DNA of 35,093 nt from assembly GCA_035550755.1 (NCBI GenBank), contig DASZON010000036.1:1-35093 (forward strand). Direction: 5' to 3'. A program made the translations under genes and the position numbers. Of this stretch, positions 1 through 35,093 are shown piece by piece (the first letter of the stretch is position 1; each line of letters starts with the position of its first letter). The DNA comes from Actinomycetota bacterium. Lineage in GTDB: Bacteria; Actinomycetota; CALGFH01. The notes below the pieces were generated by a model. It saw only the letters and a program-made list of their open reading frames with translations. It did not search any database and was not told where the DNA came from.

Positions 1-141
1 CCGCGCCGCAGCCAGGCCCTGGCCATGGAGCAGCTGACCGCCGCCGTCGACGGGGTCGTCGCAGTGGAGAGCGAGCTCCAGTGGCAGGACGAGGAGATGG
101 TGACTCAGGCCTCACCGGCCGAGCCGGCGCCGCTGGGCTGA
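1..141 (+). CDS. partial 3' end of a BON-domain protein (probable CBS-pair+BON paralog)
   Basis: Frame 1 is open from the window edge to TGA 139-141. The translation ...RRSQALAMEQLTAAVDGVVAVESELQWQDEEM... lines up with the C-terminal BON segment of in-window paralogs (e.g. RRSLLPYVVRAVQRVEGVVRVEDRLTY in 7831..8523). It is absent from the ORF track because it has no start codon in the window. Confidence 0.5.
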   Translation, partial: PRRSQALAMEQLTAAVDGVVAVESELQWQDEEMVTQASPAEPAPLG

Positions 142-151
142 GCTGCGGGCC

Positions 152-1645
152 ATGGGGCTGACCATCGAGCGAGAGCGGTTCGCGCCGGTCGACTACGTTC
201 GGTTCGAGGAGCGGCTGGAGGAGTGCCTGGTCGCCCTGCGCCGCCTGCTGGACCGGCCGGGCTTCGGTACCGGCCCGACCACGATCGGTGCCGAGTTGGA
301 ACTGTGCCTGGTCGACGACCAGGGCCGCGCCCTGCCACGGAACCAGGAGGTCCGCGCCGAGACCGCCGACCCCCGGGTGGTCCTGGAGGTCGACCGGTTC
401 AACCTCGAGTTGAACCTGACCCCGGCGCCGCTGGCCGGGCGGCCGTTTGCGGCCATGGCGAGCGAGCTGGAGCAGGCTCTTGGGATCGTGCGCCGGGCGG
501 CCGCCTGGCACGGCGGCCGCCCGGTCATGGTCGGCATCCTGCCCACGCTCCGGCCCGAGGACCTGGAGCTGGCGGCCCTGTCGGACGCGCCCCGGTACCG
601 GGCCCTCAACAACGGCCTGCGTCGGCTGCGCCAGCAGCCGTTCCGGATCCGCATCAACGGAGCCGACCCGCTGGAACTGGCAACCGACGACATCGGTCTC
701 GAGGGCGCCAACACCTCCTTCCAGGTCCACCTGCGCGTCGACCCGGACCACTTCGCCGACCACTTCAACGCCGCCCAGCTGGCCATTGGCCCGGTGCTGG
801 CGGTAGCCGGCAACTCCCCCACCTTCCTCGGCCATCGACTGTGGGAGGAGACCCGGGTGGCCCTGTTCAAGCAGGCGATCGACGACCGCGGCACCGGCGG
901 CCGGGCCAGCCGGCGAGTCGCCCGGGTGGCCTTCGGGACCGGCTGGACGATCACCGGCGCGCTGGAGCTGCTGGAGGAGAGCGTCCGACTGCACGAGCCG
1001 GTCCTGCCGGTGGTCGGCGACCAGCACCCCCTGCAACGCCTGGACCAGGACGGCGTGCCCGCCCTCGAGGAGCTGCGGCTGCACCAGGGGACGGTGTGGC
1101 GCTGGAACCGGGCCATCTACGACCCGGCAGGTGGCGGGCACCTGCGGATCGAGATGCGGGCCCTGCCCGCCGGACCGACGGTGGTCGACATGCTGGCCAA
1201 CGCAGCCTTCCTCCTCGGCTTGACCCTGGCCCTGGCCGTCGACGCCGGCCGTTGGGTCCCGCGGGTGGCGTTCCAGCAGGCCCATCACAACTTCTACCGG
1301 GCCGCCCAGCTCGGCCTGGAGGCCGAGCTGGCCTGGCCGCTGGAATCGGAAGGCCGAACGCGGGCGGTGCCGGCGGCCGAGCTCGTGCCGAGGCTCCTGC
1401 CCGCCGCCCGCCAAGGGCTGGAGCGTGCCGGGGTCGCGGCCGGGGATATCGACCAGCTGCTCACCGTCATCGAGGCCAGGGCGGCCACCGGTCAGACTGG
1501 TGCCGCCTGGCAGCGCAAGGCCCTGGCGGTGCTGGAGTCCCAGCATGGCCGCGACCGCGGGCTGACGGCCATGCTGGAGCAGTACCTGGAGCACCAGCAG
1601 ACCGGCGAGCCAGTCCACACCTGGCCGCTGCCGAGCGGTCGATGA
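152..1645 (+). CDS. glutamate--cysteine ligase family 2 (GCS2) / carboxylate-amine ligase-like protein
   Basis: 497-aa ORF with strong third-position GC bias. The N-terminal TIGAELELCLVD segment and overall layout are typical of GCS2/YbdK-type ligases. It starts 10 nt after the preceding stop, so it is operonic. Confidence 0.75.
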   Translation: MGLTIERERFAPVDYVRFEERLEECLVALRRLLDRPGFGTGPTTIGAELELCLVDDQGRALPRNQEVRAETADPRVVLEVDRFNLELNLTPAPLAGRPFAAMASELEQALGIVRRAAAWHGGRPVMVGILPTLRPEDLELAALSDAPRYRALNNGLRRLRQQPFRIRINGADPLELATDDIGLEGANTSFQVHLRVDPDHFADHFNAAQLAIGPVLAVAGNSPTFLGHRLWEETRVALFKQAIDDRGTGGRASRRVARVAFGTGWTITGALELLEESVRLHEPVLPVVGDQHPLQRLDQDGVPALEELRLHQGTVWRWNRAIYDPAGGGHLRIEMRALPAGPTVVDMLANAAFLLGLTLALAVDAGRWVPRVAFQQAHHNFYRAAQLGLEAELAWPLESEGRTRAVPAAELVPRLLPAARQGLERAGVAAGDIDQLLTVIEARAATGQTGAAWQRKALAVLESQHGRDRGLTAMLEQYLEHQQTGEPVHTWPLPSGR

Positions 1646-1663
1646 CCTGGGTGGAGGAGCGAC

Positions 1664-3064
1664 ATGACGGAACAGCTTGGCGCAGCGGATCGGCCGCTCC
1701 GAATCGCCGTTGTCGGCGCTGGCCCCGCCGGGCTCTATACCGCCGACAGCCTGCTCCGGCGGCGCGACATCGTCCTCACCATCGATGTCTTCAACCGCTT
1801 CCCCACCCCGTTCGGCCTGATACGCGACGGTGTTGCGCCCGATCATCAGTCCATCAAGGCGGTCGCCCGGATCTTCGACAGGGTCCTGGCCGATCCCCGG
1901 GTCCGGTTCTTCGGGAACGTCACCTACGGAGTTGACCTGCACCGTCGGGAGCTGAGACAGCGCTACCATCAGATCGTCTATGCCGTCGGCGCCCAGGCCG
2001 ACCGGCGCATGAGCATCCCCGGCGAAGACCTGCCCAACAGCCTGCCGGCTCGCTCGTTCGTCGGCTGGTACAACGGCCATCCCGACTACCGCGACCTGCC
2101 CATCGACCTTTCCTGCGAGCGGGCGGTGGTCATCGGCAACGGCAACGTGGCGATGGACGTGACACGGATCCTCGCCATGTCCCCGGACGCGCTGGCCGGA
2201 ACCGACATCGCCGACCACGCCCTGGAGAAGCTGCGCCACAGTAGGATCCGCGAGGTCGTGGTGCTGGGACGACGCGGCCCGGTGCAGGCGTCGTTCACCA
2301 CCCCCGAGATCAGGGAGCTGGGGAAGCTCGAAGGGGTGGACGTGCTCATCGACCCTCAGAACCTCCAGCTCGACCCGGCCAGTGGCAGCGAGCTGGAAGA
2401 GGATCGCACCGCCAAGGCCAACCTGAAGATCCTGCACGACTACGCCGCGCGCACCGACCATGCGGCCCCTCGCCGCATCGTCCTTCGCTTCCTCGCCTCG
2501 CCGGTGGAGATCATCGGCGCTGACGGCCGGATCACGGCCCTGAAGATCGAGCAGAACGAGCTGGTCGTGGACCCCAACGGGGCCCTGCGGTCCCGAGGGA
2601 TCGGCCAGTTCGAGATCATCCCGACCGGCCTGGTCCTGCGCTCGATCGGCTATCGCACCGTGCCGATCGAAGGTGTGCCCTTCGATCCGGCGACCTCGAC
2701 GATCAACAACGTCGCCGGGCAGGTCGTCCATCCCAGTACCGGCGAGGTGGTCCATGGCGAATATGTCGTGGGATGGGCCAAGCGCGGCCCGACGGGGCTG
2801 ATCGGCAACAACAAGCCCGACGCCGCCGCCACCGCCGATGCCATGCTGGCCGACCTGCCCGCCCTGCAGCGACTCGGCGGCAACCACCGTGACCCGTCGC
2901 AGATCGAGGCCCTCCTCCGGGAGCGAGGCACCGACTATGTGACCTATGAGGATTGGCGGATCCTCGATCAGTACGAGCGTTCCGCCGGCCGGGCCGGGGG
3001 CCGTCCGCGGGTCAAGGTCACATCGGTTCCCGAGATGATGGCGATCATCCGCGCCGGGCGCTGA
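1664..3064 (+). CDS. fprA: NADPH:ferredoxin (adrenodoxin-type) reductase, FprA family
   Basis: GGAGGAG SD lies just upstream of ATG 1664. Motifs IAVVGAGPAGLY, GVAPDH, VGWYNGHPDY, VVIGNGNVAMDV, GRRGPVQASFTTPEIRELG and YVVGWAKRGPTGLIGNNK are colinear with mycobacterial FprA as I recall it. Confidence 0.9.
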   Translation: MTEQLGAADRPLRIAVVGAGPAGLYTADSLLRRRDIVLTIDVFNRFPTPFGLIRDGVAPDHQSIKAVARIFDRVLADPRVRFFGNVTYGVDLHRRELRQRYHQIVYAVGAQADRRMSIPGEDLPNSLPARSFVGWYNGHPDYRDLPIDLSCERAVVIGNGNVAMDVTRILAMSPDALAGTDIADHALEKLRHSRIREVVVLGRRGPVQASFTTPEIRELGKLEGVDVLIDPQNLQLDPASGSELEEDRTAKANLKILHDYAARTDHAAPRRIVLRFLASPVEIIGADGRITALKIEQNELVVDPNGALRSRGIGQFEIIPTGLVLRSIGYRTVPIEGVPFDPATSTINNVAGQVVHPSTGEVVHGEYVVGWAKRGPTGLIGNNKPDAAATADAMLADLPALQRLGGNHRDPSQIEALLRERGTDYVTYEDWRILDQYERSAGRAGGRPRVKVTSVPEMMAIIRAGR

Positions 3065-3100
3065 CGCGAACCCGACCGGCAGTTCGACGCCGTGGCCGCG

Positions 3101-3493
3101 CTACGCCTCCTGCCGGTGCACCCGCTCGGGGAGGAAGACCGACATGACGTCCCGCATCGAGAGCACGCCGGCTGCCGCCCCCTGCTCCAGCACCACCAGG
3201 TGGCGGATGCGGCGGTCGTGCATCTCAGCCGCCGCGACGCCCACGTCCCAGTTGGGTGAGGCGGTCACCACCGGGGCGGTCATGTGATCGGCAACTCGAG
3301 CCTGGGCGACATCACCGAGCCGGGCGGCGGCGTGCATGACATCACGCTCGGTGAGGATGCCGGCGACCTGGCCGCCCTGCCTCACCACCACCGAGCCGAT
3401 GCCGTGCTCCTGCATGAGCTGGGCGGCGTGTTGCAGCGACTGATCGGGGTCGACCGTGACCACCGGGCTCCTCATGAGATTTCGGACCTGCAT
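3101..3493 (-). CDS. CBS-pair domain protein (stand-alone, about 130 aa)
   Basis: Two CBS repeats are visible (VRNLMRSPVVTV...GIGSVVV...GILTERDV and HMTAPVVTA...IRHLVVLE...GVLSMRDV). An AGGAGGAG SD sits in the 18-nt gap after the upstream SDR gene. Confidence 0.85.
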   Translation of the reverse strand: MQVRNLMRSPVVTVDPDQSLQHAAQLMQEHGIGSVVVRQGGQVAGILTERDVMHAAARLGDVAQARVADHMTAPVVTASPNWDVGVAAAEMHDRRIRHLVVLEQGAAAGVLSMRDVMSVFLPERVHRQEA

Positions 3494-3511: not shown

Positions 3512-4246
3512 TCACATGTACAGTCCGCCGTTGATGTCGATGATCTCGCCGGTGATGTAGCCCGAGTCGGGGTCGGCCAGGAACTCGACCACCCGCGCAA
3601 CCTCGTCCGGCTCGCCGAGGCGACCCGCCGGAATGGTGCCGATAATCCGGTTGAGGATGTCCTCGGGGATGGCGGCGACCATCTCGGTGGCGATGAACCC
3701 CGGCGCGACCGAGTTGACGGTGATGCCCTTGCGGGCCGTCTCCAGGGCCAGGCTGTTGGTCAACCCGAACAACCCCGACTTGGCCGCCGCGTAGTTGGCC
3801 TGGCCGATGTTGCCCTTCTCCCCGATCACCGAGCTGATGTTGATGATCCGCCCGTACCCGCGGTCCAGCATGTGTTGCAGCACCGCCCGCGAAAGATAGA
3901 ACGCCCCCGACAGATTGATGCCGATGACCCGGTCCCAGTCCTCCACCGACATCTTCCTGACGGTGCGGTCGATGGTGATGCCGGCGTTGTTGACCAGGAT
4001 GTCGAGCTGGCCGTGCTCCTCCAGTACCTCGGCGATGACGCGTTGGCAGTCGGCCGCCACCCCGATGTTGCCCTGGTGAACGGTCACGCCCTCGTGGGCG
4101 GCCGCGAACGCCTTGGCGGCATCGGCCCCGCGGGAGTACCCAACGGCGACCTTGACCCCACGGTCGGCCAGGCGGCTGCTGATCGCCAGCCCGATCCCTC
4201 TGGCCCCGCCGGTGACGAGCGCAACCTGACCTTCCATGCTGGCCAT
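3512..4246 (-). CDS. short-chain dehydrogenase, acetoacetyl-CoA reductase / 3-oxoacyl-ACP reductase-like
   Basis: Classical SDR motifs are present: TGGARGIG, NNAG and YAAAK. The start is trimmed to ATG 4246 (MASMEGQVALVTGG), which follows GGAAGGAGG. The longer track ORF to 4318 has no SD. Confidence 0.85.
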   Translation of the reverse strand: MASMEGQVALVTGGARGIGLAISSRLADRGVKVAVGYSRGADAAKAFAAAHEGVTVHQGNIGVAADCQRVIAEVLEEHGQLDILVNNAGITIDRTVRKMSVEDWDRVIGINLSGAFYLSRAVLQHMLDRGYGRIINISSVIGEKGNIGQANYAAAKSGLFGLTNSLALETARKGITVNSVAPGFIATEMVAAIPEDILNRIIGTIPAGRLGEPDEVARVVEFLADPDSGYITGEIIDINGGLYM

Positions 4247-4321
4247 CGTGGCCTCCTTCCTTGCCCGGCGTGCAGGTGCACCGGCTTGGTCCAGCATCGG
4301 CCAAGGCCGTGGGTCCACCTA

Positions 4322-4358
4322 TGGCCGAAGGTCCCGTTCCGGGCGGGTCGTGCGACCC
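4322..4358. promoter_or_regulatory. box pair: 4345-4358 GGGTCGTGCGACCC and 4322-4335 (minus sense GGGACCTTCGGCCA)
   Basis: Two GGGnC-N4-GnCCC-type boxes lie 23 bp apart in the 113-nt gap between the Pat-type gene and the SDR gene. The proximal box ends 89 nt upstream of ATG 4246. The distal box sits inside the hairpin GCGGGTCGTGCGACCCGC (4343-4360), which abuts the Pat stop codon. Confidence 0.45.
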
Positions 4359-4359: not shown

Positions 4360-7068
4360 CTACCGGCGCCGGGCAGCCAGCGGGAGTGGCAGGGTGGCGG
4401 CCTCGACCCGGACCCGGGCGTCGACCACGACCACACCGTCGGGCAGTACCTTGACCGGGTTGCAGTCCACCTCGGCGATGGCCGGGTGGGCCTCGACCAG
4501 GGCGCTGACCCGCAGCAGGAGGTCCTCGAGGGCGGCCACGTCGGCCCTGGGGGCGCCGCGGTAGCCGTCCAGCAGCGGGTAGGTGGCCAGTGAGCGGACC
4601 ATCTCGGCGGCGTCCAGGTCGGTCAGCGGGGTGATGCGGACGGCCACGTCCTTGAGGAGCTCGACCGCCGTGCCACCCGCCCCGCAGGCGATCACCGGAC
4701 CGAACGAGGCGTCATGGACGACCCCGACAAGCACCTCCACCCCCTGGCCGACCATACGCTGGACGAGGAACCCGTCCACCGTGTAGCCCTCGGCGGCGAC
4801 CGCCGCGGACATCTCGGCGGCCGCGGTCTGGACCGCCTCGGCGCTGGCCAGGCCGAGACGGACGGCACCGGCCTCGGTCTTGTGGACCAGTCGGGGCGCG
4901 ACCGCTTTGAGGGCCACTGGCCCGCCGAGCTCGTTCGCGGCCGCGGCGGCCTCCTCGGGCGAGCCGGCCAGGCGCCACTCGGCGGTGGGTATGCCGTAGC
5001 AGCCGAGCAGCCTGGCAACCTCCTCCGGCGATAACCAGCGGGGGCCCGTCCCGTCGGCCAGGGCCGCGGCCAGCAGGGCGGCGGCCTCGTCGCGGCGGGC
5101 GTCGGGCAACTCGGGCACCTGGCCCTCCGGACGCTGTCGCCATGCCCCGTATTCCACGGCACGCACCAGTGCGTGGGCGGCGTCCTCGGGAAACCGGTAG
5201 CGGGGAAGCCGGGGGCCGTCGCCATCCTCAAGCGGCGGGTCGGCCGAGGACATGACCACGTTCAGCACCGGGACCGACCTGGCCCTCGCGGTCGCATCGT
5301 GGACCGCCTGGACGACCGCGTCCGTGTCGGCGGGCAGGGGCGGGATGAAGATCGCGATGACAGCGTCGACCTCTCCGGAGGCGGCCACCAGCTCGACGGT
5401 CCGGCGGTAGTGCTCGGGCGGGGCCGAGGCCAGCATGTCGACCGGGTTGGCCACCGCCGCCTCCGGAGGCAGTTCCTCGGCCAAGCTCGCCTGGAGCCGC
5501 GGGGAGAGCTCGACGACCTCTAAGCCGCCGGCCTCGCAGGCATCCGCGCACATGATCCCCGGCCCGCCGGCATTGGTCACGATTCCCACCCGCCGTCCCG
5601 CCGGGATGGGCTGGTTGGCGAGCAGCGAGGCCACGTCGAACAGCTCGGCCAGGCTGTCGGTCCGGATCACCCCGGCCTGGTCGAAGAGCGCGTCCACGGT
5701 CACATCCGAAGCGGCCAGGAGCGCCCCGGTGTGGGAGGAGGTGGCCCTGGCGCCAGCGGCCGAGCGACCGCTCTTGACCGCGAGCACCGGCTTGGTCCTG
5801 GCCACGCGCCGGGCGATCCGGGCGAATTTGCGTGGGTTGCCGAACGACTCCAGGTACAGCAGCACGAGGTTGGTCCGTTCGTCCTGCTCCCAGAACGACA
5901 GCAGGTCGTTGCTGGAGATGTCGGCCTTGTTGCCGACCGACACGAACGACGACAGTCCCAGCCCGAGCGCGTTGGCGTAGTCGATGATGGCCAGGCCGAG
6001 GGCACCTGACTGGGACAGGAACCCAACCCGCCCGGGAAGCGGCACGATCGGGCCGAAGGTGGCGTCCAGGCGCACCTCGGCATCGGTGTTCACGATCCCC
6101 AGGCAGTTGGGCCCGATGAGGCGCATCCCGGCGGCCCGGCAGACGGCCAGCAGCTCTCGCTGGCGCTGGGCGCCCTCCGGCCCGGTCTCGGCGAAACCGG
6201 CCGAGATCACCACGATCGCCCGCACCCCCTTGGCCGCGCAGTCTCCCGCCGCCTCGACCACAGACGGGGCCGGCAGGGCCAGCACGGCCAGGTCGACCGG
6301 GCCGGGTACGTCCAGCACCGACTTGTAGGCCACGACCGACTGGACGACCGAGGCCTTGGGATTCACTGGGTACACCGGGCCGTTGAAGCCGGCCGCCAGC
6401 AGGTTGTGGAACAGCTCGCCGGAGACGGTGCCGCGCCGCCGCGAAGCGCCGATGACCGCCACCGCGCGGGGCTCGAAGAAGGCGCGCATGGCGGCGGTGG
6501 CTGCCAACTGCTCGCGCCGCTCGAACCGCTCCAGCGCCTCCGGCGACATGGAGGTTGGGAACTCGATCAGGAGATATCCCGAGAGGCTGTGGGTCCTGAC
6601 CGGGAAGCCACAGTCGCGGAAGACCTTGACCATCTGGTGGTTCTCGGCCAGCACCTCGGCATCCAGTACCTGGATGCCGAGCTGGTTGGCTGCCTCGGCG
6701 AGCTGGCCGAGCAGGATCGTCCCCAGCCCCTTGCCCTGCAACGCATCGACGATCTCCAAGGCCACCTCGGCCCGGTCCGGGTGGTCGGGCTGGCGCTCGA
6801 AGCCGGCATGGCCGACCACCCGACCGTCGGCCCCGCTCGTGGCGACCAACCCGTACCGGCGCTCGTAGTCGACCTCGGTAGCCCATTGGACGGCCTTGGT
6901 CAGGTCCGGATAGCCGGAGAAGAACCGGAGCCAACGGCTGCGGTCGGACAGCCCCTTGAGCAGCCGCTCGACCTCGGGCGCGTCGGCGGGCCTGGCCGGC
7001 CGCACGTGGACCGTCGAGCCGTCCCGCAGGACGACGTCGGCTTCCCGATGAAGGGGATAGCTGGTCAT
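4360..7068 (-). CDS. bifunctional GNAT acetyltransferase / NDP-forming acyl-CoA synthetase-like protein (PatA-type protein acetyltransferase)
   Basis: About 900 aa. An N-terminal GNAT domain (RWLRFF..., QGKGLGTILL) is followed by CoA-binding/succinyl-CoA-synthetase-like and ATP-grasp regions (VAVIGASRRRGTVSG, LIGPNCLGI, VGFLSQSGALG). The preferred start is ATG 7068, 8 nt after GAGGAG. GTG 7077 would overlap the upstream stop. Confidence 0.85.
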   Translation of the reverse strand: MTSYPLHREADVVLRDGSTVHVRPARPADAPEVERLLKGLSDRSRWLRFFSGYPDLTKAVQWATEVDYERRYGLVATSGADGRVVGHAGFERQPDHPDRAEVALEIVDALQGKGLGTILLGQLAEAANQLGIQVLDAEVLAENHQMVKVFRDCGFPVRTHSLSGYLLIEFPTSMSPEALERFERREQLAATAAMRAFFEPRAVAVIGASRRRGTVSGELFHNLLAAGFNGPVYPVNPKASVVQSVVAYKSVLDVPGPVDLAVLALPAPSVVEAAGDCAAKGVRAIVVISAGFAETGPEGAQRQRELLAVCRAAGMRLIGPNCLGIVNTDAEVRLDATFGPIVPLPGRVGFLSQSGALGLAIIDYANALGLGLSSFVSVGNKADISSNDLLSFWEQDERTNLVLLYLESFGNPRKFARIARRVARTKPVLAVKSGRSAAGARATSSHTGALLAASDVTVDALFDQAGVIRTDSLAELFDVASLLANQPIPAGRRVGIVTNAGGPGIMCADACEAGGLEVVELSPRLQASLAEELPPEAAVANPVDMLASAPPEHYRRTVELVAASGEVDAVIAIFIPPLPADTDAVVQAVHDATARARSVPVLNVVMSSADPPLEDGDGPRLPRYRFPEDAAHALVRAVEYGAWRQRPEGQVPELPDARRDEAAALLAAALADGTGPRWLSPEEVARLLGCYGIPTAEWRLAGSPEEAAAAANELGGPVALKAVAPRLVHKTEAGAVRLGLASAEAVQTAAAEMSAAVAAEGYTVDGFLVQRMVGQGVEVLVGVVHDASFGPVIACGAGGTAVELLKDVAVRITPLTDLDAAEMVRSLATYPLLDGYRGAPRADVAALEDLLLRVSALVEAHPAIAEVDCNPVKVLPDGVVVVDARVRVEAATLPLPLAARRR

Positions 7069-7073
7069 GGCGG

Positions 7074-7685
7074 TCACTCCTCGTCCAACCGGACCTCGAG
7101 GACGCCGGGCACGCCGCGAGCCAGCAGCATGGCCAGCTGGCGATCGACCGGGTCAAGGAGGCCGGTAAGGTCCACGACCCCGTCGCGGACGGTCACCCGG
7201 TAGGGGCTTGGTGAGCCCAGCTCGGCCGCCAGCAGCGCCTCCAGGTCATGGGCGATCTCCCCGTCGCTGCGGGCCAGCACCTCCAGCAGGTCCCGCCGGG
7301 CCACGATGCCGACGACCCGGCGGCCCCGGAGGACCGGGATCGACTTGATCCGGCGCTCCAGCATGAGCCGGCCAGCGTCGGCGACGTCGGCCTCCTCGGG
7401 CAGGGCGATGACATTCAGGGTCATGGCCTGGGACGCGATCCGGGGTGCCGATTGAGACGCCTCGGGGACTGGGGCGAGATGGGCCCGCGGGTCGGGGGCC
7501 AGCTCAAGTGGGACCAGATCGGCCTCGGAGAGGATCCCGACCAACTCGCCGGCGTCCACCACCGGCACGGCGCTGATGGCCCGCGTGACCAGGACCTTGG
7601 CGACCTCCTTGAGCGGCATGCCCGGTGGCACCGTCACCACCGGGCTGGACATGACCTCCCTGACCCGCACGTCGCCTCCTTGCAT
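7074..7685 (-). CDS. CBS-pair + BON-like domain protein
   Basis: Two CBS repeats (VREVMSSPVVTV...AVPVVD...GILSEADL and AMTLNVIAL...IKSIPVL...GIVARRDLL) are followed by a BON-like tail (VTVRDGVVDLTGLL...VPGVLEVRL). ATG 7685 has no SD. GTG 7670 follows an internal AAGGAGG and is the more likely start. Confidence 0.8.
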   Translation of the reverse strand: MQGGDVRVREVMSSPVVTVPPGMPLKEVAKVLVTRAISAVPVVDAGELVGILSEADLVPLELAPDPRAHLAPVPEASQSAPRIASQAMTLNVIALPEEADVADAGRLMLERRIKSIPVLRGRRVVGIVARRDLLEVLARSDGEIAHDLEALLAAELGSPSPYRVTVRDGVVDLTGLLDPVDRQLAMLLARGVPGVLEVRLDEE

Positions 7686-7726
7686 TGGTTACCGGCAGTG
7701 TGGCCCCCGGGGTCCGGGTGGTTCTA

Positions 7727-7763
7727 GGGCCAGGTGGCCCGGCCGCCGCGGGACGTTCGCCAC
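7727..7763. promoter_or_regulatory. box pair: 7727-7740 GGGCCAGGTGGCCC and 7750-7763 GGGACGTTCGCCAC
   Basis: Two boxes lie 23 bp apart in the divergent intergenic region between 7685/7670(-) and 7831(+). The proximal box starts 81 nt upstream of ATG 7831. The other box ends 70 nt from GTG 7670. Confidence 0.45.
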
Positions 7764-7830
7764 TACAGCGCGCGTAGGTCCAGCGGTTGCATTGCATTGG
7801 GGGACTGAACCCGAACCCGAGGAGGATGTG

Positions 7831-8523
7831 ATGCACAGCCTGGTGAAGGATCTGATGACGACCCCGGTGGTGACGGTGCAGCCCACCACCCCGTTCAAGG
7901 AGATCGTGACCCGCTTGGCCAAGCACGGGGTCAGTGCGGTTCCGGTCGTGGACGACAGTCGCCTCGTCCTGGGTGTCGTCTCCGAAGCCGATCTGCTCCT
8001 CAAGGAGGAGTTCCCCCAGCCCGAGCAGGACATCCCGCTGTGGTGGACCAGGCGGGCCCGGCTGGACCGGGCCAAGGCCGCCGCCGCGGTGGCCAGCGAC
8101 CTCATGACCGTGGCCGTGGTGGCCGTCTCGCCCGACGCGACGGTGGCCGAGGCGGCCCGGCGGATGCACACCGCCAAGGTCAAGCGCCTGCCCGTGGTCG
8201 ACCGCCGCGGCCGGCTGGTCGGGATCGTCAGCCGCAGCGACCTGCTGAAGGTGTTCGACCGCTCCGACGAGGACATCCGCCGCGAGATCATCGAGGACGT
8301 GATCGTCGGCGAGTTCATGATGGCCCCGAGCCGGTTCTTCCTCCACGTCAATGACGGGGTGGTGGTGCTCCAGGGCCGAGTGGAGCGGCGAAGCCTCCTG
8401 CCCTACGTGGTCCGGGCCGTCCAGAGAGTCGAAGGCGTGGTCCGGGTCGAGGACCGGCTGACCTACGACCTCGACGACTGGGACGGCGACCGGGTGATGA
8501 CCTACCCCTGGGTCCGTGTCTGA
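7831..8523 (+). CDS. CBS-pair + BON domain protein
   Basis: The start is trimmed to ATG 7831, preceded by GGAGGA. The sequence MHSLVKDLMTTPVVTV...GVSAVPVVD...GVVSEADLL, then DLMTVAVVAV...VKRLPVVD...GIVSRSDLL, then BON (VNDGVVVLQGRVERRSLLPYVVRAVQRVEGVVRVEDRL) shows the architecture. Confidence 0.85.
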   Translation: MHSLVKDLMTTPVVTVQPTTPFKEIVTRLAKHGVSAVPVVDDSRLVLGVVSEADLLLKEEFPQPEQDIPLWWTRRARLDRAKAAAAVASDLMTVAVVAVSPDATVAEAARRMHTAKVKRLPVVDRRGRLVGIVSRSDLLKVFDRSDEDIRREIIEDVIVGEFMMAPSRFFLHVNDGVVVLQGRVERRSLLPYVVRAVQRVEGVVRVEDRLTYDLDDWDGDRVMTYPWVRV

Positions 8524-24209: not shown

Positions 24210-24279
24210 GCAGTCGGTAGGCATATGGCGGACCGTCCGACCCGGCACCTGCCGATGCGGGGGCTGCCGCCCGAGCTGG

Positions 24280-25248: not shown

Positions 25249-25614
25249 TCAACGTCCGACCAGGAAGGCCACCACGTTCTGCGCCACCACCACGACCGCG
25301 GCCACCCCGCCGATCCAGGCAGGCACGATGGCCTCCCTGCGGCCGGCACGATGTGCCCGGCGGCCGTAGTGAACCGCAGCCACGCCGGGAGCGACGAGGA
25401 TCAGCAGTGCCGGGATGGCGGCGAGCAGCACCGGCCCGACCGGGACTGGTTCTTGGCTGCCGCTCTGGTACCCGAGCGCGCTCATGAGTCCTTCGCCCAC
25501 CGCCATGGCCACGACCAGCGCCACCGGCAGCAACGCGACCGCCACCCAGGCCCGGCGCAGATCACGGTCCGCGTGCTTGGACGGACCGATGACCGATGCG
25601 GGTTCGGCAGGCAC
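25249..25614 (-). CDS. small integral membrane protein (about 121 aa, 3 predicted TM helices)
   Basis: GAAGGAGGAG precedes the GTG at 25614. The hydrophobic segments are WVAVALLPVALVVAMAV, VLLAAIPALLILVAPGVAAV and IGGVAAVVVVAQNVVAFLV. Confidence 0.5.
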   Translation of the reverse strand: MPAEPASVIGPSKHADRDLRRAWVAVALLPVALVVAMAVGEGLMSALGYQSGSQEPVPVGPVLLAAIPALLILVAPGVAAVHYGRRAHRAGRREAIVPAWIGGVAAVVVVAQNVVAFLVGR

Positions 25615-25681
25615 GGGCACCTCCTCCTTCGCTCTCGCTTCACGAAAAGCCGACGCTAACTGGCTGTCCCCCCCCCGAGAC

Positions 25682-25909
25682 TCAGGTGGCGCTGAACAGG
25701 TCGTGGGTCGCGACGCCGCCGGGGCCGACCACCACGACCGTCGCGTTGCCGAGCGCATCGAAACGGCGGTGTGCCAGGTGAGCCCAGGCCGTTGCCTGCT
25801 GTCTCGGTGCCGGTCGGGGTGTAGACCAGCCGGTGGTCGCCGGTGATCCGCTGGCCACCAGGATGCCAACCAGGATGAGCGTGCTGCTGGGTCCGAGATG
25901 GCGGTCCAT
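25682..25909 (-). CDS. small hypothetical protein (75 aa) with N-terminal hydrophobic segment
   Basis: An AAGGAGG SD lies 6 nt before ATG 25909. The sequence is MDRHLGPSSTLILVGILVASGS...FDALGNATVVVVGPGGVATHDLFSAT. GC3 is fairly high at both ends and weaker in the middle. Confidence 0.4.
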   Translation of the reverse strand: MDRHLGPSSTLILVGILVASGSPATTGWSTPRPAPRQQATAWAHLAHRRFDALGNATVVVVGPGGVATHDLFSAT

Positions 25910-25922
25910 CTCAGGCCTCCTT

Positions 25923-25936
25923 GGGACCGCAGACCC
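25923..25936. promoter_or_regulatory. single box GGGACCGCAGACCC (perfect GGGnC-N4-GnCCC match)
   Basis: The box lies immediately upstream of, and touches, the SD of the 25909 gene. This differs from the -70 to -90 placement of the other boxes and may be a chance match. Confidence 0.25.
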
Positions 25937-26088
25937 TGCCGGGGCTTGCCGCCAGGGCGCGAGAGGCATCGCCGGAGCCGTCCTGACAAGCGATCTTCGT
26001 CCTACTCCCCCAGCCTACGACCAGCCCCGGCAGGACCCCAGAGGCGAACGACCCACCACCACCGGGACAGGAGGGAGCCGGCCGGCGG

Positions 26089-26583
26089 TCACTGGGCAGG
26101 GTCGGGCAGGCGCTGGGCCCGCCACCGCTCCAGCAGCCGGGGGATCTCCTGCAACAGGTACTCGAAGAACGCCCGGGTCTCCTCCAGCCGAGCGCCCGCC
26201 GCGGTGTCCGGCCCCACGGACTTGACCCCCTCGGCCAGGTCCTGCAGCCAGCGCGCGACCATCTCGTCGCGGCGTGTGATCGCCTCATACCAGGTGTTGC
26301 TGGAGACCCGGTAGTGGTCCACCCGCTCCCCGGGCTCGCGCTCGCGGGAGAGGAGCTGCAGCTGGGTGAGGTAGCGCACGGCGCCGGAAACCGCCGCCGG
26401 GCTGACCCCGAGCTGGGCGGCCAGCTCGGCCGCGGTGCGCCGGCCGTCCTCGGCGACCAGCACGGTGGCGAACACCCGCGCGGGCATGCGGGGCATCCCC
26501 GCCTCGGTCAGGTTCAGGGCGAACCGTTCGATGAAGCGGCGGACCGCCTCCTCGTCGCGCACAGGCGCCAGTCCCTCGGCCAT
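26089..26583 (-). CDS. MarR/GbsR-family winged-helix transcriptional regulator
   Basis: The start is trimmed to ATG 26583. FIERFALNLTEAGMPRMPARVFATVLVAEDGRRTAAELAAQLGVSPAAVSGAVRYLTQLQLLSRE is the GbsR/MarR wHTH pattern. The gene is divergent from an ABC-2 exporter. Confidence 0.8.
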   Translation of the reverse strand: MAEGLAPVRDEEAVRRFIERFALNLTEAGMPRMPARVFATVLVAEDGRRTAAELAAQLGVSPAAVSGAVRYLTQLQLLSREREPGERVDHYRVSSNTWYEAITRRDEMVARWLQDLAEGVKSVGPDTAAGARLEETRAFFEYLLQEIPRLLERWRAQRLPDPAQ

Positions 26584-29190: not shown

Positions 29191-29706
29191 TCACCCGAGG
29201 CGAGCTGCGCCGGCACGATCCCGCGGCGATGCTGGGCAGGCGTGGTCCGCGCGGGCATGCCGGGCCAGGGCAGCGACCAGGTCACCGGTGGCGATGGTCC
29301 CCACCGGATGGCCGTGACCGTCCACCACTGGCAGCACGTCCAGGTGCTGTTCGTCCATCAGCCGCGCCGCCTCGACCAGCGGCTGGTCGGCCGCCACCAC
29401 GAGCGGGCTGGCGCGCATCAGCTGCCACACCCGCAGGCTGGCGAGCAGCCGCTGATGACGCAGGGATGGCCCGGGGAGCTGGGGCAGCGGCCGGCCGGGC
29501 AGGGACCGGGCGAGCACGTCCCCCAGCGTGACCACGCCGACCATCCGTCCACGGTGCAGCACCGCCGCCCCGGCCACGCCCCGGGCCAGCTGGCGGGCGG
29601 CCACATCGGCGGGTGTGTCGGCGTCCAACACCAGCACCGGGGTGGTCATGGCGTCGCCGACCGTGCCCAGCAGGTGGTCCGAATCAGGATGGTGGTCGGT
29701 GAGCAT
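29191..29706 (-). CDS. CBS-pair domain protein (stand-alone)
   Basis: The start is trimmed to ATG 29706, after GAAGGAGG. Two CBS repeats are present (VGDAMTTPVLVL...GAAVLH...GVVTLGDVL and VWQLMRASPLVV...LDVLPVVD...GTIATGDLV). Confidence 0.8.
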   Translation of the reverse strand: MLTDHHPDSDHLLGTVGDAMTTPVLVLDADTPADVAARQLARGVAGAAVLHRGRMVGVVTLGDVLARSLPGRPLPQLPGPSLRHQRLLASLRVWQLMRASPLVVAADQPLVEAARLMDEQHLDVLPVVDGHGHPVGTIATGDLVAALARHARADHACPASPRDRAGAARLG

Positions 29707-29785
29707 GACGATCAACCTCCTTCGTCCCGACCAGCCTCCCAGCTTCCCGGCCCCGGCGCCGCCGCCGATCGGCACCCTTTCTCCA

Positions 29786-30073: not shown

Positions 30074-30110
30074 GGGACCTTCGGGTATGGGATTCCGGGA
30101 CGCTTGCCTC
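30074..30110. promoter_or_regulatory. box pair: 30074-30087 GGGACCTTCGGGTA and 30097-30110 GGGACGCTTGCCTC
   Basis: The boxes are 23 bp apart. The proximal box starts 89 nt upstream of the Hsp20 ATG 30186. The left half-sites are perfect and the right half-sites are degenerate. Confidence 0.4.
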
Positions 30111-30185: not shown

Positions 30186-30628
30186 ATGGCGCTGGTCCGT
30201 CGACACCCGTTGACGGTCGCCGAGTGTGACCCTTGGGCGGCTGGATCCGGGACTGGCCGGAGCTGTTCCGGTCGTTCCGGTCGCTGCTGGCTGAGGACCA
30301 GCTCGGGGTCGAGGAGTTCCTCCACGGCGACACGCTCATCATCCGCGCCGAGCTGCCCGGGATCGACCCGGACACCGACGTCGAGCTGACCATCGGCGAT
30401 GGCATGCTCCACCTCCACGCCGAGCGGCGCCAGGAGCAGCAGCTCGAGGACAAGGACCTGGTTCGCTGTGAGCTGCGCTAGGGTGCGTTCACGCGCACCC
30501 TGCCGCTGCCGGTCGGGGCGACCGAGGAGGACATCGACGCCTCCTCCAAGGCGGGGATCCTGGAGGTCCGCGTCCCGGTCGACACCAAGAAGGCGGCCGC
30601 GACCAAGCTCTCGGTCCGCACCACCTGA
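30186..30628 (+). pseudogene. Hsp20/alpha-crystallin small heat-shock gene, disrupted (frameshift + in-frame TAG)
   Basis: A strong GGAGGAGG SD precedes ATG 30186, which gives MALVRRHPLTV... The alpha-crystallin domain (DWPELFRSF...LIIRAELPGIDPDTDVELTIGDGMLHLHAERR) is in another frame. TAG 30479-30481 sits where the family has Tyr (ELR*GAFTRTLPLPVGATEEDIDASSKAGILEVRVPV). The reading frame continues to TGA 30626-30628. Confidence 0.7.
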
Positions 30629-30800: not shown

Positions 30801-32180
30801 ATGGGGTTCCGAGATCGCGCCGACGCGGGCCGCCAGCTGGCCTGGCGACTCCAGCAGTACCGGACAGAGGTGCCGGTGGTGGTGGGCCTGCCCCGTGGCG
30901 GGGTGCCGGTCGCGGCCGAGGTGGCCCGTGCGCTGGGGGCGCCGCTGGATGTCGTGGTCGTCCGTAAGCTGGGCTGCCCCTGGCAGCCCGAGCTGGCCCT
31001 GGGCGCCGTCGGCGAGGACGGCGCCCTGGTCCTCAACCCCGCCCTGATCGCCGGCATCGGCCTGGCCCCCCAGGACCTCGCCGGCGTCGTCTGGGCCGAA
31101 CGCGGCGAGCTGGCCCGGCGCCTGGCCCACTACCGCGGGAACCGGCCGGCGGTGCCGGTCGCGGGCCGCACCGTCATCGTGGTCGACGACGGGCTGGCGA
31201 CCGGCGCCACCGCCCGCGCCGCGATCGGGGTCCTCCGCCAGCGGGGGGCTCGGCGCATCGTGCTGGCGGTACCGGTGGCGCCCCCCGAGACGGTCGAGGC
31301 GCTGGGTGCCGTCGCCGACGAGGTGGTCGCCCTGGACACCCCGAGGGCGTTCCTGGCCATCGGCCAGCGCTATGACGACTTCACCCAGACCAGCGACCAG
31401 GAGGTCACCCGGCTGCTGGGGGCCCGGGAGCCGGCACCGGCCCTGGCCAGCACCGGAACCCAAGATGCTCCCGCCCGCGAGTGCGGCATCGACCTCGGCC
31501 GGGTGCGGCTGGCCGGCGAGCTGGTCACCCCGCGCTCCCCGATCGGGATCGTGGTGTTCGCCCACGGCAGCGGCAGCAGCCGCCACAGCCCCCGCAACCG
31601 CCAGGTCGCCCACGTCCTCAACCACAGCCGGCTGGCCACCCTGCTGGTGGACCTGCTCACCCCGGCCGAGGCGAGGGACCGCGGCAACGTCTTCGACATC
31701 GAGCTGCTCGCCCGGCGGCTGGTCGGCACGACCCGCTGGCTCCAGGCCCAGCCCGAGGCCGGCGGCCTCCCGGTCGGGTTCTTTGGGGCCAGCACCGGCG
31801 CCGCGGCCGCCCTGTGGGCCACCGCCGACCTCGGCGACCAGATCCGGGCGGTGGTGTCCCGCGGCGGCCGTCCCGACCTGGCCGCCCCCAGGCTTGGCGA
31901 GGTGCGAGCCCCGACCCTGCTGGTCGTGGGGGGCCGCGACCCCCAGGTGCTGGAGCTCAACCGCCAGGCCCAGGCCCAGCTGCGCGGTCCGACCACCCTC
32001 CAGGTCATCGCCGGGGCCGGCCACCTGTTCGAGGAACCCGGCGCCCTGGACCGGGTGGCCGCCCTGGCCGCCGCCTGGTTCCGCCACCACCTCCCCCACC
32101 CCAGCCCCGCCCGGCCCGAACAGGCACTCCGGCATCCATCCGAGCCGAGCAGCCGGCCCCTCGCCATGCTCCAAGGGTGA
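30801..32180 (+). CDS. phosphoribosyltransferase domain fused to dienelactone-hydrolase-like alpha/beta hydrolase
   Basis: A GGAGGAG SD precedes ATG 30801. The N-terminal PRTase has FRDRADAGRQLA, VVGLPRGGVPVA and the PRPP loop VIVVDDGLATGAT. The C-terminal hydrolase has VVFAHGSGSSRHSPRN, the nucleophile elbow GASTGAAAAL and GAGHLFEEPG. Confidence 0.85.
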   Translation: MGFRDRADAGRQLAWRLQQYRTEVPVVVGLPRGGVPVAAEVARALGAPLDVVVVRKLGCPWQPELALGAVGEDGALVLNPALIAGIGLAPQDLAGVVWAERGELARRLAHYRGNRPAVPVAGRTVIVVDDGLATGATARAAIGVLRQRGARRIVLAVPVAPPETVEALGAVADEVVALDTPRAFLAIGQRYDDFTQTSDQEVTRLLGAREPAPALASTGTQDAPARECGIDLGRVRLAGELVTPRSPIGIVVFAHGSGSSRHSPRNRQVAHVLNHSRLATLLVDLLTPAEARDRGNVFDIELLARRLVGTTRWLQAQPEAGGLPVGFFGASTGAAAALWATADLGDQIRAVVSRGGRPDLAAPRLGEVRAPTLLVVGGRDPQVLELNRQAQAQLRGPTTLQVIAGAGHLFEEPGALDRVAALAAAWFRHHLPHPSPARPEQALRHPSEPSSRPLAMLQG

Positions 32181-32272: not shown

Positions 32273-33412
32273 TCAGTAGCGGAGGATGGCTGCCGGTCGG
32301 GCCTCGTGCGCCGGGAGGGGGTAGGCGCTGCCGCCGTGGCGGAGGGTCTCGACCGCGGCCAGATCCAGCAGGTCGACAGCTCCCGGGCGGACGCGCCGAT
32401 GGAGCTGGGCCGCGCCGGTCGCCGGGTCCACACTGCCCCAACGCTCGGTGCCCATGGGGACCAGCAGCGACTCGACCCGGCCGCCGAGGGCCGCCGCCAC
32501 GATCCGGCGCAGGTCGCTGGTGGCCCGGCCGCGCCGCTCCAGGGCCCGGCAGCGCCCAGCGACCGCCCGCTGGTCGCTTCGGAACCGGTCAGCGACCAAG
32601 GCCCAGGCCCGCCGGTGCAGCTCGCGGGCGCCGAGGTGGTCGGGGTTGCCCGACAGGCCCCCCTCCAGGATCTCGGGATAGGCGCTGGCGGCCCGGTACA
32701 GCGGCCGCAGGTAGTCCACCCCGGCCAGCACCAACGGCGCCCGCCGGTCGCTGACCGCATGCTGGAGCCCATGGTCGACCTCGCGGAACAAGCGCAGGAC
32801 GCGGTCCTTGGCGTCGTCGGTCCCCACCCCGTGGCCATGGAAGACCACCGCCGGCCGACCCCCGGGCCGCGCCGGGCCACTCTGGTGCAGCTGGAGCTGC
32901 TCGGCGCGGTCCTCCAGGCGCATCGTCTCGTCCAGGCCGGCCAGGACCTCGGGCAGCTCAAGCTCGCGGAGGCCGTCCCGGTCGCCGGCGAACAGCCGCA
33001 CCCGGTGCTGGCTGAGGGCGAGCAGGTAGAACCGGCCGTCGCCACCCAGCAGGGGCAGCAGCGGCTTGACATGAAAGCGGTCGCCGACCACCACCAGCTG
33101 GCGTGGTCGGTAGGGCAGCCGTAGCCGCCGGGCGCCGCCGCCGGCCAGGAACAACGCCAGGCCACCAGCGGCCGCGTCCCGCCAGAAGGCCGCGTCGGCG
33201 GTCAGCTCCAGGCCGGGGGCGAGCAGGTCCCTGGCCTGGGAATGGCGCACGCCGCCAGCCAGCCGGTGCTCGGCCTCGCGGAGCAGGTTCCGCAGCCGGA
33301 TCGGGTCCTGCTCGGTGTCGCCCGGTGGATGGGTTGGCAGGAAGATCGACACACGCCGGCCGCCACGCTCATCGGCGAGTGCGACCAGCCCCTGGGTGGT
33401 GAGCAGCCGCAT
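32273..33412 (-). CDS. eRF1/Pelota-like (bacterial archaeo-eukaryotic release-factor-like) family protein
   Basis: The start is trimmed to ATG 33412, 7 nt after AAGGGAGG. The 379-aa protein opens with VSIFLPTHPPGDTEQDPIRLRNLLREAE, which I recognise as typical of this family (the family of M. tuberculosis Rv2629). The assignment is from memory only. Confidence 0.55.
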   Translation of the reverse strand: MRLLTTQGLVALADERGGRRVSIFLPTHPPGDTEQDPIRLRNLLREAEHRLAGGVRHSQARDLLAPGLELTADAAFWRDAAAGGLALFLAGGGARRLRLPYRPRQLVVVGDRFHVKPLLPLLGGDGRFYLLALSQHRVRLFAGDRDGLRELELPEVLAGLDETMRLEDRAEQLQLHQSGPARPGGRPAVVFHGHGVGTDDAKDRVLRLFREVDHGLQHAVSDRRAPLVLAGVDYLRPLYRAASAYPEILEGGLSGNPDHLGARELHRRAWALVADRFRSDQRAVAGRCRALERRGRATSDLRRIVAAALGGRVESLLVPMGTERWGSVDPATGAAQLHRRVRPGAVDLLDLAAVETLRHGGSAYPLPAHEARPAAILRY

Positions 33413-34577: not shown

Positions 34578-34680
34578 CACCGGAACCTCCTCTCAGGCCC
34601 GGCACCGACGTCACCATGGCCCACCGGGCCACCGGACCTCGGTGCATCCTCAACCTAGCCCGTGACCGGCCTCCGGGGCA

Positions 34681-34694
34681 GAGGCGAAGGTCCC
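34681..34694. promoter_or_regulatory. single box GAGGCGAAGGTCCC (minus sense GGGACCTTCGCCTC)
   Basis: The box lies about 104-117 nt upstream of the dehydrogenase start. It shares the 10-mer GGGACCTTCG with the boxes at 30074 and 4335(-). Confidence 0.3.
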
Positions 34695-34804
34695 GCTCCC
34701 GCCGTGCCGACTCACGGCCCGCGGATGGGCCCACGCCCTTCACCGCTCGTGAGCCTGCTCGACGGTGAGCGGTGGGAGCGGCCCTCGCGCCACCCGGGAA
34801 CCGA

Positions 34805-34841
34805 GGGCTGACCGGCACGGGTCGGGTGTGACCATCGGCCC
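34805..34841. promoter_or_regulatory. box pair: 34805-34818 GGGCTGACCGGCAC and 34828-34841 GTGACCATCGGCCC
   Basis: The boxes are 23 bp apart. The proximal box starts 73 nt upstream of ATG 34901. The distal box resembles 9825-9838 (GGGGCGACCGGCCC). The proximal box shares minus-sense TAGGGCCGA with 9863 and 14580. Confidence 0.45.
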
Positions 34842-34900
34842 TACGGCGCGGGCTCGGGAGGCGATCTGATAGGCGTGGAGATGGATCGAAGGAGGATCCG

Positions 34901-35093
34901 ATGCGCAGCCTGGTGAGGGACCTGATGACGACCCCGGTGGTGACCGTCGAGTCCACCACGCCGTTCAAGGAGATCGTGGCCCGGCTCACCCAGCACAAGG
35001 TGAGCGCGGTGCCGGTGGTGGACGACGCCGGGCTGGTGCTCGGTGTCATCTCCGAGGCCGACCTGCTCCTCAAAGAGGAGCACCCCGACCCCG
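34901..35093 (+). CDS. CBS-pair (+BON expected) protein, 5' partial, close paralog of 7831..8523
   Basis: A GAAGGAGGA SD precedes ATG 34901. MRSLVRDLMTTPVVTVESTTPFKEIVARLTQHKVSAVPVVDDAGLVLGVISEADLLLKEEHPDP runs off the window end. It is absent from the ORF track because no stop codon lies in the window. Confidence 0.8.
   Translation, partial: MRSLVRDLMTTPVVTVESTTPFKEIVARLTQHKVSAVPVVDDAGLVLGVISEADLLLKEEHPDP

Follow-up and report, generated by a model that had tools for sequence, protein, structure and literature searches.

A probable hypoxia/dormancy island rich in CBS-domain genes and OsdR-type operator boxes in an actinobacterial contig

Why should nine genes for CBS-domain proteins lie within 35 kb of a single actinobacterial contig? 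The question is raised by contig DASZON010000036.1 of an Actinomycetota bacterium (GTDB lineage CALGFH01; NCBI GenBank assembly GCA_035550755.1), of which we analyzed positions 1 to 35,093 of the forward strand as one window of 35,093 nucleotides, which is a whole metagenome contig. By our own estimate, typical genome-wide density would presumably give ~0.1 CBS genes per 35 kb, and the observed number is far above that; it stands at the top of the range among 80 comparison loci without being unique, at the high end of a common pattern. An initial annotation of this DNA had described six genes for a CBS pair followed by a BON domain (CBS-BON) and three for stand-alone CBS pairs, and had seen in them a family of energy-charge sensors, each assigned to a separate effector. 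We favor a different answer, namely that the window is probably a hypoxia/dormancy island under the control of a DevR/OsdR-type regulator, with the CBS and CBS-BON proteins as its multi-copy family, and that the nine genes cluster because they are members of this shared regulon island. On this account the locus adds to a stress regulon already described and does not amount to a novel type of system.

CBS genes and their promoters

A profile hidden Markov model (HMM) built from the paralogs and run against the six-frame translation of the whole window retrieved exactly nine CBS-coding segments and none besides, which bears out the initial count. Architectures were assigned with Pfam (two copies of PF00571 plus PF04972, gathering scores as cut-offs) and genes were called from codon-position GC, cross-checked against gene calls on metagenome contigs carrying identical proteins, which placed several start codons 18–33 bp away from those first annotated. 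Four CBS-BON genes are complete in the window: CBS-BON_1 (7074–7685, reverse strand, 203 residues), the apparently monocistronic CBS-BON_2 (7831–8523, forward, 230 residues), CBS-BON_3 (9972–10661, initially from 9939, forward, 229 residues) and CBS-BON_4 (23285–23932, initially to 23956, reverse, 215 residues), the latter two also matched by the metagenome gene calls. Each of the four proteins carries two CBS stretches (98–113 bits) and a C-terminal domain that scores as BON above the Pfam gathering score (29.6–45.8 bits, cutoff 27). The initial annotation, which would have fallen had these regions not scored as BON, stands on this point. Pfam likewise recovers CBS pairs without BON at all three positions at which stand-alone pairs had been described, that is in CBS_a (3101–3475, initially to 3493, reverse, 124 residues), CBS_b (11236–11628, reverse, 130 residues) and CBS_c (29191–29715, initially to 29706, reverse, 174 residues with an N-terminal extension), in agreement with the metagenome gene calls.

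The remaining two genes are cut by the contig ends. The left-edge gene, CBS-BON_0, is represented by its 3′ end only (1–141, forward strand), a 46-residue tail that by itself yields no Pfam match and is recognized by the paralog HMM (E=2e-11); the full gene encodes 231 residues in identical contigs (L001:1968–2663) and has a precomputed BON hit. The right-edge gene (34901–35093, forward) contributes 64 N-terminal residues comprising CBS1 (E=7.5e-16) and the start of a long linker, its C terminus lying past the contig end. The initial tally of six CBS-BON genes therefore holds for the four complete genes and for the left-edge gene, whereas the right-edge gene displays CBS1 only. Assemblies made independently from several samples, one 30.7-kb contig among them, repeat the overall gene order, and the arrangement is therefore not an assembly artefact.

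Reading of the promoters uncovered a recurrent ..GSC-GAAS-GTCCC element. The string CGAASGTCCC occurs five times in the window, always in intergenic sequence, against 0.19 occurrences expected, and the extended element AGGGCCGAASGTCCCG matches the 16-nt consensus AGGGCCGATCGGCCCT of Streptomyces coelicolor OsdR, a DevR orthologue that binds DevR targets (PMC5069765). To avoid circularity, we built a position weight matrix (PWM) exclusively from 25 published S. coelicolor OsdR sites, with the window sequence excluded. Its top three matches (14580, 24195 and 9848) and seven of its top ten are intergenic, and intergenic DNA, which makes up 9.9% of the sequence, holds nine of the 16 matches of at least 7 bits (binomial P=5e-6). 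Furthermore, a box of at least 7 bits, centred 43–116 bp upstream of the start codon, is present in six of the seven in-window CBS promoter regions, CBS_c being the sole exception; 11% of random 310-bp windows reach the same score.

The best box of the window, AGGGCCGAACGTCCCG (14580–14595, 17.2 bits), occupies the divergent promoter between the P-type ATPase–CBS_b unit and the TusA/V-ATPase operon, and AGGGCCGACAGGCCCG (24195–24210, 13.5–13.6 bits) is centred at −74 of the zinc-finger–CBS-BON_4 unit. Three promoters carry tandem boxes: CGGGGCGACCGGCCCC (8.8 bits) and CTGGCCGTTCGGCCCT (13.1–13.2 bits), 24 bp apart between the DAO-family gene and CBS-BON_3 (9824–9863), which are the longest invariant blocks of a three-way promoter alignment; AGGGCCAGGTGGCCCG and CGGGACGTTCGCCACT, 23 bp apart in the divergent CBS-BON_1/CBS-BON_2 promoter (7726–7764), both conserved as blocks in the related loci L009 and L010; and, in front of the right-edge CBS gene (34804–34842), AGGGCTGACCGGCACG (9.9 bits) at −89 and TGTGACCATCGGCCCT (10.4 bits) at −66, with a spacing of 23 bp. 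A single box, ATGGCCGAAGGTCCCG (4321–4336, 8.3 bits), is centred at −83 of the unit formed by CBS_a and a short-chain dehydrogenase/reductase (SDR) gene, a half-box, CGAAGGTCCC (30074–30083), lies upstream of the Hsp20 gene, and in the extended contig a 10.7-bit box precedes CBS-BON_0 at about −77 (L001:1883). At 14580 and 4321 the boxes come close to identity with OsdR sites on the published list, among them AGGGCCGAAAGTCCCG and AGGGACCTTCGGCCCC, and the window's boxes, with the 23–24-bp spacing of the tandem pairs, stand out as conserved blocks in the orthologous promoters of the two closest metagenome-assembled genomes (MAGs), L009 and L010. The signal resides in this placement and conservation and not in raw counts, the motif being GC-rich in GC-rich DNA (70–79% GC across the window). 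The same PWM found no box in the promoters of the MarR/ABC-transporter unit and of the baeRF-family gene. The canonical core of Mycobacterium tuberculosis DevR, GGGACnnnnGTCCC, was rejected as the operator form here, with two matches at up to one mismatch against 5.8 expected.

The CBS-BON family and the dormancy regulons

The association between CBS-BON genes and this type of control reaches beyond the window. A scan of one genome per species with the paralog alignment returned at least 517 relatives, and locus statistics were drawn from the best 80; the nearest among the relatives listed are uncultured Actinomycetes MAGs (76–79% identity), followed by Streptosporangiales, Streptomyces and Micromonosporales. 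Of the 80 loci, 52 hold at least two CBS-BON genes within ~20 kb, with counts reaching six in some, and in the close relative L010 seven CBS genes share 15 kb. Boxes of at least 12 bits precede 25% of the 150 CBS-BON genes in these loci versus 3.4% of random windows. With proteins of the locus L011 as queries, 22 of the 80 loci proved to have a DevR-like regulator within 10 kb, in many cases directly downstream of the CBS-BON gene, and 20 to have a DevS-like kinase. In L011 itself, which represents the next-closest MAG lineage, the CBS-BON_3 orthologue has a GAF-GAF-HisKA_3-HATPase kinase gene as its divergent neighbor, and a NarL-type regulator, Pat and an AMP-forming acetyl-CoA synthetase (Acs) are encoded nearby. 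Among the nearest non-CBS neighbors in 78 other loci (n=141), universal stress proteins (USPs) are the most frequent (21; counted by Pfam, tblastn with a USP query being too insensitive), followed by cNMP-binding, Crp-like regulators (10), GAF/HisKA_3 kinases (8), GerE response regulators (8), nitroreductases (7), PNPOx-like proteins (6) and HSP20 (4).

Two side observations concern these relatives. Near its DevS/DevR-like genes and CBS-BON/Pat pair, L011 encodes a multicopper oxidase/cupredoxin protein of large size as well as a PAS-PAS histidine kinase (5894–8203 and 14413–15957). The closest reference contig, L009 (CALOFL010000015.1; 79% identity, syntenic), is labelled 'Candidatus Krumholzibacteriia', a label or binning that is probably wrong because the other relatives are all Actinomycetota and its gene content is actinobacterial; the present window, too, encodes an F420-dependent PPOX-class protein of a kind typical for actinomycetes.

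At the protein level, at least 6,051 clusters were matched at E≤1e-10, all of them named only 'CBS domain-containing (membrane) protein', and we found no NCBIfam model, solved structure or retrievable paper for the CBS+BON combination. The initial remark that the organization had not been characterized is thus fair for CBS+BON, and does not extend to the general principle, for which the AcuB protein discussed below is a precedent. Assignment to the actinomycete DevR/OsdR dormancy response would give this large family a physiological context, together with a candidate regulator, a candidate operator and, with SCO0169 and its relatives in Streptomyces, a model that can be grown in culture.

The history of the paralogs is consistent with a long-standing family. 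The complete CBS-BON proteins of the window are 31–57% identical to one another, and paralogs 0, 1, 2 and 3 have one-to-one orthologues at 73–81% identity in the closest MAGs, that of paralog 4 being expected outside the flanks covered; on these grounds we rejected recent in situ duplication. In a neighbor-joining tree without support values, paralogs 0, 2, 3 and 4 form one clade whose outside members are only a few uncultured MAG sequences, which indicates that their expansion is old and lineage-specific, while CBS-BON_1 belongs to a deep, separate subfamily common to Nonomuraea. Neither a recent tandem duplication nor a piecemeal acquisition, which the initial annotation had wanted a phylogeny to tell apart, has left a trace in this tree and these identities.

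The right-edge gene is probably the sixth CBS-BON gene, as judged from its ~75% identity (by eye) to CBS-BON_2 and from the long CBS1-CBS2 linker that it begins, which is typical of the BON-type paralogs. Exact and codon-degenerate scans of metagenome DNA for its C terminus gave nothing, and contigs reached via the ABC ATPase end before this edge. Used as a protein query, the 64-residue fragment matched only single-CBS proteins of 70–112 residues. A truncated single-CBS family was considered and rejected for this gene, and the short matches do not speak against a right-edge BON domain, because their contexts (L089–L093) show CBS-BON genes split by frameshifts into overlapping ORFs. Several CBS-BON genes in these relatives appear as two overlapping open reading frames, for example of 106 and then 146 residues, and one of the contigs (L093) is named 'tig...', suggesting a long-read assembly; the splits are probably frameshift errors that inflate the number of short single-CBS proteins in databases.

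The sequences also suggest what the proteins may sense. Of the 16 complete CBS domains, 14 retain the G-h-h-[S/T]-x-x-D signature, through which Bateman modules that have been characterized touch the ribose of their adenosine ligands, and the CBS pairs are plausible adenylate sensors. Neither a signal peptide nor a transmembrane segment was found in the CBS-BON proteins, and the BON domain is likely cytoplasmic because the proteins begin directly with CBS1, without a signal peptide. An AlphaFold2 model of CBS-BON_3 is of moderate overall quality (pLDDT 73, pTM 0.52), with a confident C-terminal helix-strand-strand-helix-strand domain (pLDDT 88–93) and a low-confidence CBS1-CBS2 linker. The nearest structures in Foldseek are 4esy, AcuB, Hrp1/Rv2626c, CBSX2 and archaeal ribosome-bound CBS proteins, with AcuB entries filling most of the top ranks at 19–24% identity. 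The best match by both sequence and structure, extending to the long helical linker between CBS1 and CBS2 (E=9.5e-25, 36% identity), is 4esy, a structural-genomics entry for the CBS domain of a Sphaerobacter thermophilus 'CBS domain containing membrane protein'; there the CBS part alone was crystallized, and the entry says nothing on BON.

Known dormancy islands offer the closest parallel to the window. The DosR regulon of M. tuberculosis and the OsdK-OsdR island of S. coelicolor (SCO0203/0204, within SCO0167–SCO0219) likewise join small stress proteins with redox and energy enzymes and place 16–20-bp palindromic boxes ~40–150 bp upstream of many units, the window box being equal to the OsdR consensus. 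Families shared with these regulons are USP, Hsp20, CBS (Hrp1 and SCO0169 there), F420-PPOX/PNPOx-like, baeRF/Balon/Rv2629-like, a P-type ATPase and a fusion of phosphoribosyltransferase (PRTase) and hydrolase, with a presumed correspondence to CtpF and Rv0571c/Rv2030c. Rv2629/Balon is hypoxia-induced and encoded near Hrp1 (PMC10901736); the PNPOx protein SCO0214 and several USPs are OsdR targets, and SCO0169 adjoins the Crp-like SCO0168, which has OsdR boxes (PMC5069765). Importantly for the CBS genes, SCO0169, which carries the description 'putative cystathionine beta-synthase' (PMC11344345), i.e. a CBS-domain protein, is down to 0.13x in an S. coelicolor osdR mutant at 36 h (pfp 0.0000, Table S4), among the strongest effects. 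The window differs from the DosR/OsdR islands in having no regulator or kinase gene and in holding one USP versus nine CBS genes, and its V/A-type ATPase operon, type II Pat and FprA are not among the predicted OsdR targets considered here. The comparison with Hrp1/Rv2626c, a stand-alone CBS pair of ~140 residues in the DosR regulon, is similarly two-sided: it is a small cytoplasmic Bateman module in a dormancy island, onto which the CBS part of CBS-BON_3 superposes with a target-normalized TM-score of ~0.72, a generic fold similarity, and it has neither BON nor the long CBS1-CBS2 linker, matching CBS-BON_3 weakly (E=5.6e-8) and not appearing among the CBS_a matches at E≤1e-8. To our knowledge the V/A-type ATPase, type II Pat and FprA are also absent from the M. 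tuberculosis DosR regulon. For tuberculosis-related biology the family may offer a comparative handle on Hrp1, a protein whose function is not known to have been settled.

We therefore propose a model in which most transcription units of the island would be driven from promoters with DevR/DosR (OsdR)-type operator boxes. A DevS-like haem/GAF kinase encoded elsewhere in the genome would sense O2 limitation or NO/CO, and the phosphorylated DevR/OsdR-like regulator would bind the boxes, often in tandem, and switch all units on together. The CBS pairs might then report the energy status by binding adenine nucleotides or some related ligand, with the cytoplasmic BON domain as an oligomerization, docking or membrane-contact module, and the CBS(-BON) proteins would play the part that USPs and the CBS protein Hrp1 have in the mycobacterial and Streptomyces regulons.

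Several observations weigh against this proposal. CBS_c, the Hsp20 gene and the PRTase fusion have weak or half sites only, and the baeRF-family gene has none; the M. tuberculosis core GGGACnnnnGTCCC is not enriched, only the GC-rich Streptomyces-type form fitting; total PWM matches are only modestly above a Markov null in sequence of 72% GC; and no DevS/DevR gene was found in the 35-kb window. The family-wide box enrichment counts many orthologous Streptomyces loci, which are non-independent, and its null consists of random, mostly coding windows. The support from the osdR mutant is limited to SCO0169 as a CBS-domain protein, and at a pTM of 0.52 the arrangement of the domains in the CBS-BON_3 model is unreliable.

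Sensors, protective factors or another regulon

If the island is under shared control, is there still room for the initially proposed model, in which every one of the nine CBS proteins senses energy charge for, and physically regulates, a neighboring enzyme or pump of its own? As a general rule for the cluster we consider this unlikely, with one pair as its best case. Five to six of the nine CBS genes are in an operon-like arrangement with another gene (gaps of −53 to 36 bp), the age and divergence of the paralogs are compatible with specialization, and in 10 of 17 Pat-containing loci, which come from Streptomyces, Streptosporangium, Nonomuraea and the present lineage, Pat has a CBS-BON gene on its own strand at a distance of less than 150 bp, a recurrence across genera that is good circumstantial evidence for one dedicated sensor–effector pair. 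There is moreover an experimental precedent for a CBS-pair adaptor beside an acetylation enzyme: AcuB of the Bacillus/Geobacillus acuABC operon, a Bateman domain with a small C-terminal ACT domain encoded with the acetyltransferase AcuA, binds AMP, ADP, ATP and Ap4A and, depending on the energy state, inhibits the deacetylase AcuC (PMC13121692, PMC13039410). AcuB and the CBS-BON proteins are alike in size and in layout, with a small alpha/beta domain after the CBS pair. The gene of AcuB adjoins that of a lysine acetyltransferase from the system that controls acetyl-CoA synthetase, CBS-BON_1 adjoins Pat, and an AMP-forming Acs is encoded nearby in L011. AcuB differs in carrying ACT where Pfam finds BON here, and it aligns to CBS-BON_3 over ~180 columns but with a TM-score of only ~0.4–0.47; the partner in the window is a type II Pat and not AcuA, no AcuC-type deacetylase gene is present in the window, and eight of the nine CBS genes are not beside any acetylation enzyme. 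By analogy, CBS-BON_1 is a plausible AcuB-like sensor dedicated to the control of protein acetylation with Pat, and next to the 2026 work on AcuB the pair suggests a second, independently evolved coupling of energy charge to protein acetylation. The other partners fare differently: the PNPOx, GCS2/FprA, DAO, SDR and zinc-finger pairings are kept only in the two closest MAGs, where all are syntenic, and elsewhere the nearest neighbors are mostly other regulon members and regulators, with no fixed partner per paralog. CBS-BON_2 and CBS_c are among the two to three genes that look monocistronic in the gene map, tandem arrays without enzymes exist (five CBS-BON genes within 6 kb, with no interleaved enzymes, in Nonomuraea L016), and shared operator boxes already account for the clustering. 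The sensor-per-effector proposal thus retains its Pat/CBS-BON_1 pair, whereas for the other paralogs adjacency to enzymes would be best explained by shared regulation. A combination of both ideas, in which the CBS-BON proteins are DevR/OsdR-controlled sensors of adenylates (or of Ap4A or c-di-AMP) with BON replacing the ACT domain of AcuB as the module that docks to partners or membranes and each paralog of this lineage gating a different dormancy effector, seems to us doubtful; if true, the gated effectors would be Pat-dependent acetylation, the F420-PPOX protein, GCS2/FprA redox chemistry and the P-type ATPase.

The CBS(-BON) proteins could alternatively be protective or structural dormancy factors, associated for instance with the ribosomes or membranes of cells depleted of energy, that act beside the Balon-like factor and Hsp20, which we hold to be quite unlikely. 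The initial annotation tied BON domains to membranes and phospholipids, and a published study deals with phospholipid binding by DolP; the island includes a Balon-like gene, and stress proteins that act stoichiometrically, USPs for example, typically come in many copies. CBS modules, AMP/ATP-binding in the archaeal proteins, are moreover deployed in dormancy by the ribosome hibernation factors HibA and Dri (PMC13324472), and the CBS proteins SriA/SriB sit on the Methanosarcina acetivorans 70S ribosome (9znf/9zni), with CBS_a matching 9zni_6 at E=6.6e-20. Yet these archaeal factors are built with four CBS domains, an HPF/RaiA domain or both, and without BON, whereas Pfam finds two CBS domains and no HPF here; the similarity is that of the generic CBS fold, and neither a signal peptide nor a transmembrane segment was found. 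Nor do we find it persuasive, and indeed rate as very unlikely, that the GC-rich palindrome is the site of another regulator, such as a Crp/Fnr-like protein of the SCO0168 type, or a compositional feature of promoters, with the island belonging to a different stress regulon. The absence of devSR genes from the window, the lack of enrichment of the mycobacterial core, the modest excess in total PWM matches and the frequency of Crp-like cNMP-binding regulators next to CBS-BON genes (10 of 141) would fit such a view. The box, however, agrees position by position with a consensus validated by electrophoretic mobility shift assay for OsdR, its copies at 14580 and 4321 nearly reproduce listed OsdR sites, DevS/DevR-like genes adjoin CBS-BON genes in a quarter of the loci and SCO0169 depends on osdR, all of which favor a DevR/OsdR-type dormancy regulon.

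Other genes of the island

The neighbors named in the initial annotation (GCS2/FprA, Pat, SDR, FAD oxidoreductase, PPOX, P-type ATPase, zinc finger and Hsp20) were all confirmed by domain or family matches. CBS-BON_0 is the first gene of an operon with a GCS2-like gene of glutamate-cysteine-ligase family 2 (152–1645, forward strand; a weak match of 27.4 bits, cutoff 21, far under the NCBIfam cutoffs) and an FprA-type NADPH-ferredoxin (adrenodoxin) reductase (1664–3064, forward; E=5.9e-128 to M. tuberculosis FprA, 1lqt, over the full length), with gaps of 10 and 18 bp. CBS_a is downstream in the unit of the SDR (3512–4246, reverse, Pfam), and CBS-BON_1 lies 5 bp upstream of the type II Pat acetyltransferase, which has an N-terminal GNAT domain (4360–7068, reverse, Pfam/NCBIfam-level matches), in one operon. 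The FAD-dependent oxidoreductase is of the DAO family (8574–9719, reverse, Pfam and metagenome gene calls). CBS-BON_3 forms an operon with the F420-dependent PPOX-class oxidoreductase of the Rv2061 class (10691–11131, forward; 118.9 bits, cutoff 84.9), and CBS_b is taken to be co-transcribed with the type II (Ca/Na,K-like) P-type cation ATPase (11576–14545, reverse, domain matches) because it overlaps the 3′ end of the ATPase gene. Directly upstream of CBS-BON_4 is a gene for a eukaryote-like C2H2-type zinc-finger protein of 57 residues (23956–24129, reverse; zf-C2H2 26.3 bits, cutoff 25.2), for which tblastn, too insensitive here, gave no homologue near CBS-BON genes in 80 other loci.

The Hsp20/alpha-crystallin gene (30233–30628, forward) contains an in-frame TAG at 30479–30481 (..CELR*GAFTRTLPLP.., where Tyr is expected) and reaches 53 bits to HSP20 only with this codon read as Tyr. 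The truncated 82-residue call also appears in independent metagenome assemblies, because of which this looks like a real nonsense mutation or a pseudogene and not a sequencing error.

The initial annotation was silent on several further genes. The PRTase/alpha-beta-hydrolase fusion (30801–32180, forward, domain matches and metagenome gene calls) adjoins a baeRF-family gene for a Balon/Rv2629-like candidate ribosome hibernation factor (32273–33412, reverse; 113.8 bits to NF052287, Balon, AOC03_06830, below the cutoff of 330). The window also encodes a Glu/Leu/Phe/Val dehydrogenase and a MarR/ABC-transporter unit, the latter unrelated to the theme of the island. No Pfam match was obtained for the presumed ABC permease or for ORFs at 15419–16390 and in 24.2–26.0 kb. 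Around the latter lie ~2 kb of weak coding potential (24170–26090), with two small hypothetical ORFs (105 and 121 residues) and a single box of 8 bits at 25031, which may be noncoding sequence or genes in decay.

The largest block passed over in the initial annotation comprises a TusA-like gene (43 bits), a complete V/A-type ATPase operon (subunits I, c, F, A, B and D plus unassigned subunits) and a terminal USP gene (22793–23230), all on the forward strand and recognized by domain matches (14672–23230). Control of a V/A-ATPase from a dormancy-type promoter would, as far as we know, be unusual for actinomycetes. The GC content of this block is 77–79% versus 70–73% in its flanks, a contrast that hints at a separate origin.

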